This document shows, piece by piece, positions 7,045 to 30,495 of a DNA stretch of 33,585 nucleotides; the first letter of the stretch is position 1; every line of letters begins with the position of its first letter. The stretch lies in IMG/VR virus record IMGVR_UViG_3300025403_000028, positions 1 through 33,585 of that record; one strand, 5' to 3'. Under the pieces are notes generated by a model, which did no database searches, had not been told where the DNA came from, and saw nothing but the letters and a program-made list of their open reading frames with translations. The translations under genes were made by a program, and so were the position numbers. Source of the DNA: a virus. Taxonomy: Duplodnaviria; Caudoviricetes.

Positions 7045-7487
7045 TATGCAATCCTTAAAATGGCTGTTGTAGACCCAGCAACTGGGAACTGAACAGTAAA
7101 TGAGTTAGAACAAATTTTATCACTACCAAAATCCAATACACAAACAGAAGCGTTATTTTGACTTGCATTGTAAATCAATGCGCCTCTAACAGTAAAGGCG
7201 GCAGGGCTCCAAATAGCATCATTAAAAGACCAATACCCTACCGTGCCGCCCGTTGATCCAGATGTTGGCGTTGTACTAATTGTCAACGCCTGACCACCAG
7301 CCGTATACCCAGTACCAACAACTTCACCCGTCAAACCAGATACATACTGCGTTGTTGATGGCCCAAGCGTTGCCGATCCATTAAATAAAGCAATGTAAAA
7401 AGTATTTGGACTTGTAGGGCCAAAGTTGTGCAAGCCTTGAGCAAGCTGGACTTTGAAACTGGTTGTTGCACCTTGTTGAAAAGCCAT
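7044..7487 (-). CDS. virion structural protein (paralog of 6370-6849)
   Basis: TFYIALF...GEVVGTGYTAGG...RGALIYNASQ..SVCVLDFGSDK. Confidence 0.65.
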   Translation of the reverse strand: MAFQQGATTSFKVQLAQGLHNFGPTSPNTFYIALFNGSATLGPSTTQYVSGLTGEVVGTGYTAGGQALTISTTPTSGSTGGTVGYWSFNDAIWSPAAFTVRGALIYNASQNNASVCVLDFGSDKICSNSFTVQFPVAGSTTAILRIA

Positions 7488-9573: not shown

Positions 9574-10523
9574 TAGGTTCCACCACCAATATACATTCTC
9601 TGCGGCACAAACCGTAAAGAAGCCTTCTCTCTGTCCTCTGTTGAAGCCAAATCCCAGGATTCATCGTATTGTTGCTTAAGTATTTGTAGTCTATTTAGCC
9701 CATCTGGTACTTTTAAACATAAATAATAAGCCAAACCAGACACCATACAGTTTACAAACCTGAATGGCACATCCATTATGTTGACTCCATTACCAACATC
9801 TTGCATTCTGCGTAGTCTCCAGTACACAAACTGGTAACTTGCGGCTGAATCAGGCGTTGGCCATACAGTAATACTGTTCTTTTGAGACAAAATGATAGGA
9901 GCACCCAAAGCATGAGATGCCGCAGTTGTATTTTGCTGGCCTCTAGTGCAGTTTAATAGGTAAGGCGGGTTGCCATTTGCGGCTGGTTGCACTTCGTTAT
10001 ACCCAATTAACTCGGAATCTAACGTAATCCAACCTGCATTTGGTAAACCAATAAGAGAATTTACAGCTATAGTGGTATCTGTCGTACCAATAGCGGCCGA
10101 AATTGCATTACTTGTAGGTTGATTATTAGCCGTTAAACGCTGAATCCAAACCTGAATAGGTCTTCCTTGATTTAACTTGTTAGGCAAGGTAGCATAAGTA
10201 TCAATACTAATACGCGTAATTGTTAAATCGGCCTGGTTACTGGCCACATTTGCATTAGTTCTAATGACGTTTTCAATAATATCTACTGTGTCATCGGGCA
10301 ATGCGTATGTAGGCTGACCTTGAACAAGAGGGATATAGTCCTGCTCAAATGTCCACATATTAAGACCACGATTGGCCCAGTCTGTAAACAATAAATTAAG
10401 AGAACGCCTAGCAGTCCTTACGTCATAACCGCTTCTTACTTCAACTCCAACGCGCTCATAAGCCTCCTCTATAACATCAGTTAACTGAAGATTAAACGCG
10501 GAAGAACCAGAAGTAGTAGCCAT
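9573..10523 (-). CDS. putative tail tubular/head-completion protein with inserted domain
   Basis: IEEAYER.G...ARRSLNLLF.DWANRGLN; VWPTPD; GLAYYL; insert ending RGQQNTTAASH. Confidence 0.6.
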   Translation of the reverse strand: MATTSGSSAFNLQLTDVIEEAYERVGVEVRSGYDVRTARRSLNLLFTDWANRGLNMWTFEQDYIPLVQGQPTYALPDDTVDIIENVIRTNANVASNQADLTITRISIDTYATLPNKLNQGRPIQVWIQRLTANNQPTSNAISAAIGTTDTTIAVNSLIGLPNAGWITLDSELIGYNEVQPAANGNPPYLLNCTRGQQNTTAASHALGAPIILSQKNSITVWPTPDSAASYQFVYWRLRRMQDVGNGVNIMDVPFRFVNCMVSGLAYYLCLKVPDGLNRLQILKQQYDESWDLASTEDREKASLRFVPQRMYIGGGT

Positions 10524-11708: not shown

Positions 11709-12191
11709 TTATTTCTTGTGATGAGTTTTACCGCCACGCTTCATAGCTGGGCCTTTAACGTTATACAAAGGTCCATCGCCAACTGTGTTGCCCTTCATCT
11801 TAGGCATCATAGCTTTTGTAGCGCCTTTTTTCTCAACAGAGTGCTCGCCGTGTGGTTTTCTACCGCCCTCAGTAACTTTGCTCATCTTGGCTGTAGTCAT
11901 GCCTTTTTTCTCTTCAATACCATGCATACCAGTAGTTGATCCACCAGATGCCATTTTTTTGACGTGACCGCCGTGTTTCATCGCCATTTGCAAATGATGA
12001 TGAGCCATTTTCATATGATGCCCGTGAGCTTCGTGATCTTTCATTTCTCCACCTCTTTTAAATGTGCGGCCTGTGTCCGCTTTACTGAACTCCTGCCCCA
12101 CACTACGCGGGACTCCCACTTTCTTGGCGAACGCTGGATTGTGGGCCACCGCCTCCATGAAATTATGTTGTGCTTTTGATTTACTTGGCAT
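11709..12191 (-). CDS. basic His/Met/Lys-rich protein
   Basis: MPSKSKAQHNFMEAVAHNPAFAKKVGV; FKRGG, MKHGG, MASGG, MKRGG. Confidence 0.65.
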   Translation of the reverse strand: MPSKSKAQHNFMEAVAHNPAFAKKVGVPRSVGQEFSKADTGRTFKRGGEMKDHEAHGHHMKMAHHHLQMAMKHGGHVKKMASGGSTTGMHGIEEKKGMTTAKMSKVTEGGRKPHGEHSVEKKGATKAMMPKMKGNTVGDGPLYNVKGPAMKRGGKTHHKK

Positions 12192-26050: not shown

Positions 26051-26099
26051 CAGTTCGTGAGTATATATCAATAACCATTATAAACAGGATGTACACACC

Positions 26100-26224
26100 T
26101 TATCAACAGGGCGGGATAACTCAAATAGTTATACACATTGATACTTTAGATGTACAAAAACTGTAACCGATTAGTTTACATAGGGTTTTCATATGTGGAT
26201 AACCATACCCGAAAATGTGGACAA
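26100..26224. promoter_or_regulatory. DnaA-box cluster
   Basis: TTATCAACA 26100-26108, TTATACACA 26129-26137, TGTGGATAA 26194-26202, TGTGGACAA 26216-26224. Confidence 0.6.
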
Positions 26225-26303
26225 CTCTGACTTGGCACGATTCTTCCACGTATAGATAGAGAAGCCGTTAAATTTAATAAACATACACACAGGGAGTAAA
26301 CAG

Positions 26304-26519
26304 ATGTTCAAATTATTTGCTGATAAGTACACAGGGAAAAAATACTTAGTGCCGACAAACTATACCCGCACGACCGTATACCAATATCCTGCAGGTTGCA
26401 AAGTTTGGGAGATAGATGGATCTTCGGATTGTTCCAAGAATGATATTGGGTTTGTTTGCTTCAAGACACGTTCCAACCTAAACGCTTGGGTGCAGATGAT
26501 GGGCTTCAATCAAGTTTAA
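26304..26519 (+). CDS. early hypothetical protein
   Basis: SD GGGAG; first gene of the plus-strand island. Confidence 0.65.
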   Translation: MFKLFADKYTGKKYLVPTNYTRTTVYQYPAGCKVWEIDGSSDCSKNDIGFVCFKTRSNLNAWVQMMGFNQV

Positions 26520-26565
26520 CTGATGAGCCTTTAGTAGGCGAAACGGTCGAAAGGCCGTCTTAAAC
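26514..26565 (+). ncRNA. type I hammerhead ribozyme 1
   Basis: GUUUAA-CUGAUGA-GCCU/uuagu/AGGC-GAA-ACGGUC/gaaa/GGCCGU-C^UUAAAC; predicted cleavage after 26559. Confidence 0.92.
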
Positions 26566-26581
26566 AAATAAGGAGAATTAA

Positions 26582-26812
26582 ATGATGTTAGCAATAAATA
26601 TGACTGAGCCTGATTTCATTCGGTTTATGCGGGCTTATGCAATGGAACATTACGACAAAGGCGGTTGGGACGAAGTTTGTGAAGCATGGGACGATGGCGA
26701 CATTCTTGAATACTACATTGAGGGCAACCCCACAAAGGCATTCAAAGAACTATCCAAGACGGTCAAATTGCGGTTCGAATACGCACAGGAGATTCGTAGC
26801 ACCGCATTCTGA
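26582..26812 (+). CDS. early hypothetical protein
   Basis: SD AAGGAG; Y.KGGWD.V.E.WDDGDI. Confidence 0.7.
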   Translation: MMLAINMTEPDFIRFMRAYAMEHYDKGGWDEVCEAWDDGDILEYYIEGNPTKAFKELSKTVKLRFEYAQEIRSTAF

Positions 26813-26862
26813 GCATAACTGATGAGACTTCAATAGTCGAAACCCCGAAAGGGGTCTTATGC
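26813..26862 (+). ncRNA. type I hammerhead ribozyme 2
   Basis: GCAUAA-CUGAUGA-GACU/ucaau/AGUC-GAA-ACCCC/gaaa/GGGGU-C^UUAUGC; predicted cleavage after 26856. Confidence 0.92.
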
Positions 26863-26879
26863 AACTACAAGGAATACAA

Positions 26880-27086
26880 ATGATATTAAAAGCAAAATTT
26901 AAATTGAGTGTTGATGACATGAGATTAAAAATTAGTGGATTCAGGTTCAAAGAGTTTATTGTTAGTAAAACAATCGAAGATAAAAAGTGCATTGTGATTG
27001 GTGAGCAGTTGGACATCATGCACTTGATCGGTCATTTGGCAGTAGATCAAATGAGTATTTTGGAAGCAGTCACTGAAGTTCTTTAA
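26880..27086 (+). CDS. early hypothetical protein
   Basis: true start likely ATG 26880 after SD AAGGA. Confidence 0.65.
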   Translation: MILKAKFKLSVDDMRLKISGFRFKEFIVSKTIEDKKCIVIGEQLDIMHLIGHLAVDQMSILEAVTEVL

Positions 27087-27100
27087 TAAAGGAAATACAA

Positions 27101-27244
27101 ATGTTAACAACAGTTTTACAAGACCCATTACAGATCAAGGCCTACATAAAAGCATTTGGACTGAGATATACATTTTGGTATCTCAATGAGATGTGTAACT
27201 GCTCAATTGGACGCACGGTCTATTTACTTGTCTTATCAATATAG
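27101..27244 (+). CDS. 47-aa hypothetical protein (not in ORF track)
   Basis: AAAGGAAATACAAATG leader; MLTTVLQDPLQIKAYIKAFGLRY... Confidence 0.6.
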   Translation: MLTTVLQDPLQIKAYIKAFGLRYTFWYLNEMCNCSIGRTVYLLVLSI

Positions 27245-27253
27245 GAGATCACC

Positions 27254-27433
27254 ATGCTACACGACAGAGACTACTACTTGCTTTGCGCACAAAACATGGA
27301 AAAGAGCGGTGGCGGTTTTGCATACGCAATTGCACAAGCCTTTTACAAAGCTGATGCCAAAAACGCTATAAAAATTGTTGTGGCCTTTTCAGATTTATTT
27401 GAAAAGTTTGCACCAAAGGAGAATGAGCAATGA
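27254..27433 (+). CDS. 59-aa hypothetical protein (not in ORF track)
   Basis: SD AGGAG; MLHDRDYY...GGGFAYAIAQAFYKADAKN...AFSDLFEKF. Confidence 0.7.
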   Translation: MLHDRDYYLLCAQNMEKSGGGFAYAIAQAFYKADAKNAIKIVVAFSDLFEKFAPKENEQ

Positions 27434-27579
27434 TGTGGCTAGTCAAAATCATTCAAGTCGAAACAGTGTTAAGCGAGGAGCGTTTCAACACTTTCGAGGG
27501 AGCGCAGTATTGGGCAAAGCAATACTTGAGGACTAACAAACTCAAAGACTGCGACATATCCATCAAACTATCTAACTGA
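27430..27579 (+). CDS. 49-aa hypothetical protein (not in ORF track)
   Basis: ATGA overlap with the previous gene; stop TGA lies inside the hammerhead 3 core. Confidence 0.55.
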   Translation: MMWLVKIIQVETVLSEERFNTFEGAQYWAKQYLRTNKLKDCDISIKLSN

Positions 27580-27620
27580 CGAGGCCGTAAGGCCGAAACG
27601 GTCGAGAGGCCGTCTTAGAT
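27570..27620 (+). ncRNA. type I hammerhead ribozyme 3
   Basis: AUCUAA-CUGACGA-GGCC/guaa/GGCC-GAA-ACGGUC/gaga/GGCCGU-C^UUAGAU; predicted cleavage after 27614. Confidence 0.92.
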
Positions 27621-27639
27621 TAACTACAAGGAAATAACA

Positions 27640-27999
27640 ATGGAAACTACAAGAGATTTAGCAAGCGAACTAGGCCAATTTATCGGCACAACACGGTATT
27701 ACAAGCCGTCTATCTTCTCAAGCATGAGAATCACGGATGGGGTGAAATACTTTATTGACCAAGCGGGCGCTTACTGGTTTACTGACATAGTAGCAAGCGA
27801 GATTGTGCCTTTGATTGATGATTTTATGACGGTGCAACTTGTTGCACTCGATAGTAAGGCTACGATCATTGCAGAGGACGGTGACGAAGAACAAATATTT
27901 CTTAAGAAAATTAGCTACACCGATTGCCCTGACGGAGAGTACAAATTTTTTATGCAAAAAGGTGATTTTGTGGTCATGATGTTGCCAAGTGAGTATTGA
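27640..27999 (+). CDS. hypothetical protein (resembles DUF6876-type)
   Basis: QFIGTTRYY...TDGVKY....GAYW..D.VAS...I.YTD.P...MLPSEY. Confidence 0.7.
   Translation: METTRDLASELGQFIGTTRYYKPSIFSSMRITDGVKYFIDQAGAYWFTDIVASEIVPLIDDFMTVQLVALDSKATIIAEDGDEEQIFLKKISYTDCPDGEYKFFMQKGDFVVMMLPSEY
27832..27847. repeat. 16-bp palindrome copy 6
   Basis: GTGCAACTTGTTGCAC, inside a CDS. Confidence 0.9.
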
Positions 28000-28198
28000 A
28001 ATGATATTAACAACACCCGACCAGATTGAGCACTTCAGGATGTTGACGCTTTATCAAGGACTAAAACTTGAGATTGCGGGCATGAAAGTAAACCGTCACA
28101 CGTCTATTTTGAAGATTCTTAAGAAAATGGGCTACAAGGGCACAAGAAAAGAAATCTTGGTGCAACTGGCCAAAGACCTAGGCAAAGAGATTAACTGA
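27989..28198 (+). CDS. early hypothetical protein
   Basis: GLKLEIAGMK motif; start may be ATG 28001; stop lies inside the hammerhead 4 core. Confidence 0.65.
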   Translation: MSIEMILTTPDQIEHFRMLTLYQGLKLEIAGMKVNRHTSILKILKKMGYKGTRKEILVQLAKDLGKEIN

Positions 28199-28240
28199 CG
28201 AGCCCTGATTGGGCGAAACCCTAGCGATAGGGTCTTAATC
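28189..28240 (+). ncRNA. type I hammerhead ribozyme 4
   Basis: GAUUAA-CUGACGA-GCCC/ugauu/GGGC-GAA-ACCCUA/gcga/UAGGGU-C^UUAAUC; predicted cleavage after 28234. Confidence 0.92.
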
Positions 28241-28259
28241 AACTACAAAGGAAATACAA

Positions 28260-28550
28260 ATGCAAACTTACAAATTTTTTGAAGACCCAGGCCACGCTTG
28301 GTTAGAAGTTCCACTAAGAGAATTGATCGACTTAGGAGTCGCAAGTGCCATCAGTCATTATTCGTATATCAAAACTCGACTGGATACCCCGTTTGTTTAC
28401 TTGGAAGAGGATTGCGACTATGCAATTTTTGCTAGAGCAATGGCTATGGCGGGCAAGCAATTTAAATACGAATCAATTTACCAAGAGAACACACCGATTC
28501 GAAACTACGCAAACTACCGCCCGCTTGATTGGGCATCTTACAAAGGATAA
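28260..28550 (+). CDS. early hypothetical protein
   Basis: DPGHAWLEV...IS.YSY...VYLEEDCD. Confidence 0.7.
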   Translation: MQTYKFFEDPGHAWLEVPLRELIDLGVASAISHYSYIKTRLDTPFVYLEEDCDYAIFARAMAMAGKQFKYESIYQENTPIRNYANYRPLDWASYKG

Positions 28551-28553
28551 CCT

Positions 28554-28715
28554 ATGGCCGAGATTGATTTAACGTCAATCTGGAATGCCTTAGAGGGGTA
28601 CAGGGAAACCTGTATCCCTGAAGGGCAAGCAGAATATGACGAAGAATGGAATGAGATATGTACCCAAATGGCATGGATAGAGGAAGAATTAAATAAAGGT
28701 GAAGAAAATGGCTAA
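28554..28715 (+). CDS. 53-aa acidic hypothetical protein (not in ORF track)
   Basis: SD AAGGA; MAEIDLTSIWNALEGYRETCIPEG...YDEEWNEICTQMAWIEEEL. Confidence 0.65.
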   Translation: MAEIDLTSIWNALEGYRETCIPEGQAEYDEEWNEICTQMAWIEEELNKGEENG

Positions 28716-28935
28716 AGTTATACAAAATGAGGACGGAAATTGGGTGATGCAAATTCAGTGGGGCACAGATGATGTTTCAATGGTTTGCGAAAACATGGAT
28801 ATTGTTCTGACCGATGATGAGAAAATCCGCGTTTTAAATGTAATGGCTGACGCGCATGACGCTGAAATCGGCACAACATGGTATTCGGTTGAGTATGCAA
28901 TTGAATATGTAATTGACGAAAGGATTCCAAAATGA
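28708..28935 (+). CDS. acidic hypothetical protein
   Basis: likely start MAKV at 28708. Confidence 0.6.
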   Translation: MAKVIQNEDGNWVMQIQWGTDDVSMVCENMDIVLTDDEKIRVLNVMADAHDAEIGTTWYSVEYAIEYVIDERIPK

Positions 28936-29261
28936 AATACACAATAATTACAGGCAACCCAGTTGATGGCTTTAGGGCTTTGGGCATATTTGATAGTAAC
29001 GAAGATGCTATCGCGTTTGCCGATATGCAGAGATTAATTAGCGATTATTCAATAATGGAAATTGAAGAAATAGAAAAGCTAGAGACTGTTACGCGCAAAA
29101 AAATGATAGATTTGCTGATTGAAGATGATATTGATGACTGGAACAACAAAAACGATCTAAAAGCTTATTTATATGAAACCTTAAATAATGGATTTGAGGG
29201 TTACAACTCTTGGAGTGATGAAAAGCTTAAAAAAGAAATGATTGAAAGGGATTTAGCATGA
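28932..29261 (+). CDS. acidic hypothetical protein
   Basis: ATGA-coupled; GNPVDGF...G.F. Confidence 0.65.
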   Translation: MKYTIITGNPVDGFRALGIFDSNEDAIAFADMQRLISDYSIMEIEEIEKLETVTRKKMIDLLIEDDIDDWNNKNDLKAYLYETLNNGFEGYNSWSDEKLKKEMIERDLA

Positions 29262-29413
29262 CAGTAGCAGATTTAATCCGTAAACTTTTACAAGTGGACG
29301 ATATAACCAAACCAGTTTACATTTACAAATGCGAGGAAAGTAAACTCGCTGAAGTAGATATAGTTGACGAACTATCCGACAGGGTTGACATCAACGCAAG
29401 GGAAACGGCATGA
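29258..29413 (+). CDS. 51-aa hypothetical protein (not in ORF track)
   Basis: ATGA overlap; MTVADLIRKLLQVDD...DRVDIN. Confidence 0.6.
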   Translation: MTVADLIRKLLQVDDITKPVYIYKCEESKLAEVDIVDELSDRVDINARETA

Positions 29414-29437
29414 TAGAAATCAAATAAAGGATGCAAA

Positions 29438-29623
29438 ATGAAAATAGATCAAGGAATGATTCAAGAAATCAATTACGAATATCCAGGAATTCACCTAATC
29501 CACCTAAAAGATGGACGAATCATTGGGATAGATGATGATTTTATTTGTCTGTACAAAGACATGGATCAATTTTATTTCTCAACTGAAGAAATCCCAACTA
29601 TTAACTTAAAGGAAATGGCATGA
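29438..29623 (+). CDS. hypothetical protein
   Basis: SD AAGGA; 61 aa. Confidence 0.55.
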   Translation: MKIDQGMIQEINYEYPGIHLIHLKDGRIIGIDDDFICLYKDMDQFYFSTEEIPTINLKEMA

Positions 29624-29682
29624 AGTACACCCGGTGTGAGGAACTGGGAGTATGCCAAAAACTAGACTGCAACCAATGCAAA

Positions 29683-29698
29683 GTGCAACAAGTTGCAC
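29683..29698. repeat. 16-bp palindrome copy 7
   Basis: GTGCAACAAGTTGCAC, at the convergence of the early and replication units. Confidence 0.9.
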
Positions 29699-29715
29699 CC
29701 ATAAAGACAAAATGG

Positions 29716-30495
29716 TTATTCCCAGTACATTTTAAGACCAAGACTAGCAAGAGGAGTTCCAAGTCTTAACTCGTAATCGTTGAAATCCTCATTAGCCTCT
29801 CCTACCCAGTAACGAGAGGCTATTTTTTTGGCGGTGCGCACCCCAACTGGGTCATTATCGGCCACAACCAACGGATTTACGGCATTCTTTGCTATCTCAA
29901 GCATATTGGACGCACTAAAACAAACGTGTATCTTAAATGGCACGCCAAGCAACCGAAGTGCCCTTCTCACAGACAACCCAGTTGCATACCCTTCCACCAA
30001 CACATCTTTGCCCTTTTCATCCATCACCAAGCTCGCACCCTTTGTCAATTGCCCCGACAAAAACTTCTTAGTTCCATCCGCATTTATCATTTGACAACCA
30101 ACCAATTTGCCATCAACCCGCATTGGAACAATCAACATTTCCTTCCACACCCAACCATTTTCATCAAATCCTTTCCTGATTAAATATGGATGCTTGGCTT
30201 TCTTGGCGCTTTTAAGGATGTATTCAGCCTTTTCGCACGCTTTCGCACGCTTTTCCAATTTATCTTCATTAGCCTTCTTTATACGTTCACGATCAACCAA
30301 AAGTGGCTTATCGGACTTGTAAGGGGCATGAAGCTCCATTGTTGCAAAGTTAATGACTGCACCACTACAACCATCAAAAATGTATGCGCCATTGGTCTTA
30401 TTTGGCTTGTCTAACGTCTTAACTCTTGCCCATCTGCCAATTACTAAATTATCAATCACCAATCCATATTGGTATGCAAAATCTGTAAAGCTCAT
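29716..30495 (-). CDS. TOPRIM-domain primase
   Basis: HPYLIRKG, LIVPM, Q.I..DGTKKFL.G, EGYATG, VVADND, DFND. Confidence 0.85.
   Translation of the reverse strand: MSFTDFAYQYGLVIDNLVIGRWARVKTLDKPNKTNGAYIFDGCSGAVINFATMELHAPYKSDKPLLVDRERIKKANEDKLEKRAKACEKAEYILKSAKKAKHPYLIRKGFDENGWVWKEMLIVPMRVDGKLVGCQMINADGTKKFLSGQLTKGASLVMDEKGKDVLVEGYATGLSVRRALRLLGVPFKIHVCFSASNMLEIAKNAVNPLVVADNDPVGVRTAKKIASRYWVGEANEDFNDYELRLGTPLASLGLKMYWE

Follow-up and report, generated by a model that had tools for sequence, protein, structure and literature searches.

Clustered hammerhead ribozymes have been described from prophages, where several motifs flank genes or short gene blocks, and processing of the transcript into operon- or gene-length mRNAs has been proposed (Perreault et al. 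2011, PMC3088659). According to the sections of that paper cited here, cleavage was shown for three clusters in vitro and for one in E. coli, with no sign of circles or of spliced products. In the same sections, an archaeal-virus hammerhead is described that precedes a start codon by 13 nt and has a mapped 5' end close to its cut. Two reviews, in their passages on the subject, regard the function of such hammerheads as open. Here we analyzed four hammerhead motifs in a 33,585-nt stretch of viral DNA (positions 1 to 33,585 of IMG/VR record IMGVR_UViG_3300025403_000028; hereafter the window). We observed that these are genuine compact type I hammerhead motifs, and that each is joined to the region where ribosomes would bind ahead of a small phage gene. 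From what is established for the hammerhead class, the four motifs are very likely catalytically active. The additions over what was known are a compact subtype, a covarying signature of a putative tertiary contact and cultured test systems.

Four compact type I hammerheads in the window

We scanned both strands of the whole window with a hammerhead descriptor at a loose and a full-quality level. The scan returned exactly four matches, at the same coordinates as in a preliminary description of the sequence (Table 1). In 300 dinucleotide shuffles of the window, loose matches averaged 0.013 (maximum 1) and matches of equal quality were absent. All four copies have an intact CUGA(U/C)GA core, GAAA and GUC cleavage triplet, in line with the CUGANGA, GAAA and NUH elements of the hammerhead class, with a stem I of 6 bp, a stem II of 4 bp and a stem III of 5-6 bp. 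Stem I is open and stems II and III are closed by loops in every copy, which is the type I topology that had been assigned to them. The predicted cuts likewise agree with those described before, both in their distance from the next AUG and in leaving the Shine-Dalgarno (SD) sequence on the 3' product, and each upstream stop codon overlaps or abuts its motif in the way first reported (Table 1).

The sequences of stems I and II also match those listed earlier, differing between copies while remaining paired. Across 11 copies of this phage group, 165 of 165 cells were paired and 10 of 15 pairs had double changes, compared to 25-41% paired in slid-partner controls. The three helices around the core are therefore backed by covariation. 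Orthologous copies carried compensatory pairs as well: one in stem II of copy 1 (relative L248), two each in stems II and III for copy 3 (L231 and L247), and one in stem III of copy 4 (L231).

No fifth or degenerate copy was found in the window, either by the descriptor scan or by a covariance model trained on the four window copies and seven from relatives (next best match 12 bits, E 1.1). A comparison with the Rfam hammerhead models, which the preliminary description had named as a check, did not recover the motifs. None of the window copies reached the gathering threshold of the hammerhead families (clan CL00010), and the best result was Hammerhead_3 at 24.7 bits (E 0.39), well under its gathering score of 48.5 and covering copy 3 in part. 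Among other Rfam RNAs, the window had a single chance-level match.

The window comes from a tailed phage, with terminase, portal, head, tail fibre, helicase and primase genes. Its terminase is closest to those of Pelagibacter phages HTVC027P and HTVC023P and two related phages (52-58% identity). The window may be about half a genome, because a 61,481-base metagenome contig holds identical hammerhead copies. One relative (L165) sits in a Burkholderiales metagenome bin, which is weak evidence for a host. The motifs lie in a block of small open reading frames (ORFs) that is flanked by minus-strand terminase small subunit-like and primase genes. DUF6876 is the sole confident family among the 15 ORFs of the block. 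The label "early operon", given to the block in the preliminary description, is read from gene layout alone.

Upstream of the block is a 207-nt divergent intergenic region. We observed no plus-strand sigma-70 match in this region, and sigma-70 and terminator scans gave no excess over shuffles. Four 9-mers resembling DnaA boxes, of which one fits the consensus perfectly and the others have a single mismatch each, cluster within the region at 26100-26224, where an origin or a DnaA-linked promoter is possible; the whole window had 17 such matches against a chance mean of 11. A sigma-54-like motif lies ~60 nt ahead of the first gene in the window (26232-26247, imperfect) and in a relative (L244:2422-2436, perfect), and is conserved in the phage group. 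We rejected this motif as a family-wide promoter, with 6 of 82 loci carrying it on the same strand and 5 on the opposite strand.

Table 1. Hammerhead motifs, predicted leaders and surrounding features, in window positions
Feature	Position	Strand	Remarks
Type I hammerhead copy 1	26514..26565	+	predicted cut after 26559; upstream stop TAA within stem I
Copy 1 putative contact bases			last base of loop II U; base following stem I A
Type I hammerhead copy 2	26813..26862	+	predicted cut after 26856; upstream TGA stop abuts stem I
Type I hammerhead copy 3	27570..27620	+	predicted cut after 27614; upstream stop provided by the core UGA
Copy 3 putative contact bases			GUAA tetraloop; unpaired U seven bases past the cut, a pattern typical of the known A-U tertiary contact
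Type I hammerhead copy 4	28189..28240	+	predicted cut after 28234; upstream stop provided by the core UGA
Predicted leader 1 with SD	26560..26581	+	22 nt, AUG at 26582
Predicted leader 2 with SD	26857..26879	+	23 nt, AUG at 26880
Predicted leader 3 with SD	27615..27639	+	25 nt, AUG at 27640
Predicted leader 4 with SD	28235..28259	+	25 nt, AUG at 28260
Block of 15 small co-oriented ORFs, presumed operon	26304..29769	+	47-119 aa, most with no family assigned
DUF6876 gene, directly after copy 3	27640..27999	+	Pfam PF21781, E 6e-27
Divergent intergenic region, presumed block promoter	26097..26303		conserved in relatives L230, L231 and L165

A compact subtype and its putative loop II contact

A strict pattern search found 131 loci in 12 of the 64 parts of IMG/VR, from which we estimate ~650 stored stretches for that one pattern. 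Two further scans gave 45 genome loci and 49 viral loci. After a helix filter, which passed 121 of 131, 32 of 45 and 27 of 49 loci (10, 13 and 22 dropped), at least 230 distinct copies of the compact subtype remained on viral and genome contigs. In the first set, stem I was 6 bp in 157 of 167 copies and stem-loop II was 13 nt in 146 of 167. Conservation of the bases adjoining the core is by construction, because the search patterns fixed them; no base was prescribed at the end of loop II or in the flanks of stem I, which were thus free to vary. At Rfam gathering thresholds, no hammerhead was reported in nine loci bearing the compact subtype or in a tenth from a cultured phage (L250, described below), whereas type II copies in another cultured phage (L227) passed. 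We conclude that the compact subtype (6-bp stem I, 4-bp stem II) is widespread and is missed by Rfam.

The free positions covaried. A Hoogsteen contact between a loop II A and U at position 1.7 is known from a minimal hammerhead (O'Rourke et al., as described in PMC11875169). In 229 copies we set the final base of loop II against the one that follows stem I (position 1.7). The known A-U form was present in 41, and copy 3 resembles the minimal hammerhead in having a GNRA loop that ends in A and an unpaired U seven bases past the cut. Unlike the minimal hammerhead, 154 copies, including copies 1, 2 and 4, have the reversed form (loop U, flanking A), mostly with a 5-nt loop. The remaining copies were G-A (19), G-G (8), A-A (4), G-C (2) and A-G (1), and U-U was absent. 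Both the U-A and the A-U form occurred within seven loci, some of them mutually related. A second feature that differs from the minimal hammerhead as described is a conserved U at the start of loop II opposite an A before stem I (U-A in 181 of 206 copies, A-U in 10 of 206). This second pair is weaker, because its A-U cases appear to come mostly from one lineage. A multi-base pseudoknot between loop II and the flank or tail was not supported by mutual information over 144 copies, which indicated single-base contacts only. Overall, the covariation between loop II and position 1.7 is strong, although among copies that are related, and suggests that the known A-U tertiary contact may also exist in reverse.

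Neither the reversed U-A form nor the second pair was found in the passages of the hammerhead literature that we compared, including those of PMC11875169. A literature search, with most subscription papers and the Perreault Dataset S1 alignments beyond its reach, returned no paper on the compact subtype or the reversed contact. The passages of PMC10085705, PMC7967978 and a 2026 preprint that we compared contained nothing specific, and, judged by title and abstract, no paper was on point for hammerheads together with RNA-seq of phage infection.

The compact subtype is also present in cultured phages. BLAST matches of copy 3 itself to cultured phages were at chance level only. Flavobacterium phage elemoA carries the U-A form, together with a type III motif (identified by eye) that starts its small-gene block. 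The type III-like and type I motifs lie at 10200-10260 and 11987-12080 of its locus (L226), and the annotation places a short ORF across the type I motif, on the other strand. In Cellulophaga phage phi19:3, the A-U form and a pistol ribozyme share a single small-gene block (the two ribozymes at L250:5992-6075 and 7383-7450). One genome arm of Streptomyces phage Janus (L227:1483-6125) contains seven Rfam type II hammerheads, which lie between small genes and are all missing from the features listed for that stretch of the record. Cutting itself seems to be kept, because type III, pistol and type II ribozymes occupy the same place before start codons.

Several other elements were observed alongside these. 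In Salinibacter phage 5_14, two genes are separated by a longer type I-like hammerhead (L251:2481-2597), Pelagibacter phage HTVC027P has an Rfam Flavobacterium-1 RNA (90 bits) upstream of the terminase region (L252:12754-12874), and a hammerhead-like element at L234:2991-3050 has an apparent extra core base before stem II. Arrays of up to nine copies per locus, without SD motifs, were found in L010, L150-L152, L139 and L164. In these arrays stem I was homogenised between copies (70% identical variable positions) compared to stem II (28%) and stem III (21%), so that cross-ligation would be possible there.

Proposed processing of the block transcript and competing explanations

The preliminary description had proposed a self-processing polycistronic mRNA, and this is the best available reading. 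It is not new, because Perreault et al. (PMC3088659), in the sections cited, had proposed and tested it for other phage and prophage clusters in 2011. The four motifs probably self-cleave a long block transcript into five linear messages, the benefit of which is a proposal. Support comes from the exact motifs, the covariation in the helices and at position 1.7, the number of distinct copies and their placement ahead of start codons, the other ribozyme types at the same position and the cleavage of the published clusters. The block would be transcribed as a single plus-strand RNA, in which each motif would fold, aided by a putative contact of the final base of loop II with the one that follows stem I, and cut after GUC. 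The 6-bp stem I would then fall apart, which would make the cut effectively one-way. Stems II and III and a 2',3'-cyclic phosphate would form the end of the upstream piece, and the downstream piece would begin with a 5'-hydroxyl (5'-OH) and a short, weakly structured leader. The likely benefit would be that decay and translation of each gene block are uncoupled from the upstream RNA, in a region of frequent gene swaps.

The five messages would carry 1, 1, 4, 2 and 7 genes, and gene identity around the motifs is variable, as in the clustered phage layout of Perreault et al. To call the messages "standardised", as had been done, is an overstatement, given that only 4 of the 15 starts in the block have a ribozyme. 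Stabilisation through the 5'-OH end, also part of the earlier proposal, depends on the host, because cleavage of the synthetic insulator RiboJ is assumed to raise stability in E. coli (PMC7536230, in the passage cited) and glmS cleavage, in the account available, leads to decay.

Several results weigh against self-processing. The minimum-energy fold is the hammerhead for copy 2 only, and copies 1, 3 and 4 have competing folds. Copy 1 is missing in four relatives and is dispensable. Among distant DUF6876 loci, only 2 of 7 have a hammerhead directly upstream, and none was found in 17-19 kb stretches of four phage genomes among the five best terminase matches. The placement ahead of start codons speaks for self-processing, but it and the overlap with stop codons are subject to other readings. 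After exclusion of copies with short flanks (10 of 230), an ORF-opening AUG lay 15-40 nt past the cut in 174 of 220 copies, compared to 14 of 220 on the opposite strand and 17% at random positions, which were chosen without regard to intergenic location. This spacing demonstrates orientation and intergenic placement. Compactness could produce it, because 22-25 nt nears the minimum for a 6-nt stem I and a ribosome site. The median distance from cut to AUG was 27 nt with an SD-like motif (n = 91) and 22 nt without (n = 83), and the downstream ORFs were small (median 75 aa; n = 172). Overlap with the stop may similarly reflect compact genomes, because 217 of 221 motifs hold stops in two or three frames. 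Once the RNA is cut, opening of the ribosome site is predicted to need 0.5-2.9 kcal/mol less in the window, and a median of 0.8 kcal/mol less across 183 copies. This gain is small, and part of it may reflect shortening of the RNA. A stem III hairpin (median -8.7 kcal/mol) is left at the 3' end of the upstream piece.

The position of the stops bears on a different role, in which cleavage would shut down or time expression. The cut would start decay, and ribosomes terminating on the overlapping stop would block folding, so that cutting would occur mainly when upstream translation falls. Stops lie in or beside the motif in all four window copies and at -9 to +6 of the core in 146 of 221 copies, and decay after glmS cleavage offers a precedent. 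However, such overlap is expected from compactness given the stops in several frames, the stop is more than 20 nt upstream in 16 of 221 copies, and the 3' product keeps its SD. We consider this role unlikely. A broader proposal, to which we give a low probability, is that the motifs form a distinct subfamily in which the reversed U-A pair and the second loop II-flank pair would allow high activity with a 6-bp stem I, and which would act as a ribosome-gated natural insulator between genes, coupling mRNA processing to translation. The gate would be ribosomes terminating on a stop codon built into the ribozyme.

Self-processing would give the motifs a use, whereas they could also be near-neutral passengers that spread with gene modules through DNA recombination between repeats, the cutting being tolerated and not useful. 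Copy 2 is retained in L230, L231, L243, L244, L165 and L248. In contrast, gene 1 and copy 1 are absent together in L230 and L165, and L231 and L243 have a different first gene without a ribozyme. Such gain or loss of gene and copy 1 as a unit fits a passenger, as do gene swaps at ribosome-site boundaries, where the presence or absence of the gene after copy 2 switches in relatives. Stem III of copy 4 in L230 resembles that of copies 1 and 3 and looks converted from another copy, and many homologous genes lack the motif. A DNA repeat, however, would need neither compensatory pairs nor covariation between loop II and position 1.7, the stems diverge between copies and lower the DNA identity, and unrelated ribozyme types are found at the same position. 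Taken together, this makes the passenger explanation quite unlikely. In a separate observation, the gene after copy 2 (26880-27100) is an insertion relative to L230, L231 and L165 and is flanked by near-duplicate ribosome-site and start sequences.

The junctions with relatives also bear on whether RNA segments are cut out between neighbouring ribozymes and then circularised or re-ligated, giving retrozyme-like circles or gene shuffling at the RNA level. In one case, the junction with a ribozyme-free relative coincides exactly with the site of a cut, but among 29 alignments sharing the downstream part with ribozyme-free loci only 4 (one event) begin at the cut, and most begin at the ribosome site or AUG. 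In the SD-less arrays, a full stem I could re-form across copies in 40 of 43 adjacent pairs, of which 22 belong to two large arrays that are related, compared to 39% between arrays. In this phage group it could do so in none of 10 adjacent pairs, which argues against self-ligated circles here, and the flanked segments are coding, unlike retrozymes. There was no reverse transcriptase among the 40 window proteins scanned, and the published clusters gave neither circles nor spliced products in the cited sections of Perreault et al. (PMC3088659). We regard excision as highly improbable. RNA-mediated shuffling was rejected as an explanation for the exact junction at cut 1 in L231 and L243, which is a single event where the shared bases end another gene's reading frame.

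The occurrence of different ribozymes in the same place would also fit co-transcriptional cutting that frees the nascent RNA from the polymerase and shields downstream genes from Rho-type polarity or RNA-tracking host surveillance. Such cutting would be in keeping with a cut site that matters more than the ribozyme type, and with a variable block whose short ORFs are AT-rich and belong to no known family. Cleavage would need to outpace Rho, and we find this explanation very unlikely.

Self-processing and these alternatives are open to experiment, because the compact subtype occurs in two cultured Bacteroidota phages, elemoA and phi19:3. With a subtype that is common, missed by Rfam and present in cultured phages, RNA end mapping and point mutants could answer the question of function directly. 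The reciprocal covariation between loop II and position 1.7 would supply a natural design rule for very small, fast hammerheads.

Comparison with known systems

Early transcripts of phage T7 are cut at RNase III sites, between genes, from one long RNA into shorter mRNAs. That processing needs a host enzyme and leaves 5'-monophosphate ends, and the phage hammerheads share with it a functional analogy only. The prophage clusters of Perreault et al. (PMC3088659), as presented in the sections cited, are closer: they too have several hammerheads near one another among small variable genes, and the same processing was proposed for them. Unlike those clusters, for which type II motifs and pseudoknots are stressed, the motifs described here are type I, with a signal for single-base contacts only.

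Type I hammerheads have also been reported ahead of ORFs in fungal and plant RNA viruses (2026; PMC13725137). In the portion of that paper considered here, they lie in untranslated regions before ORFs and yield shorter RNAs, as the phage motifs would, and a role in translation is proposed. Those viruses are eukaryotic, with cap-independent translation and no clear tertiary contacts described, whereas the present motifs belong to a DNA phage and precede SD-led leaders. RiboJ, as outlined in the passage cited above, resembles the phage copies in that a hammerhead cut fixes the 5' leader of the downstream gene, as is predicted for them. It differs in being engineered, in following a promoter and in keeping a 23-nt hairpin; the phage copies lie between genes, and their leaders are predicted to be largely unpaired.

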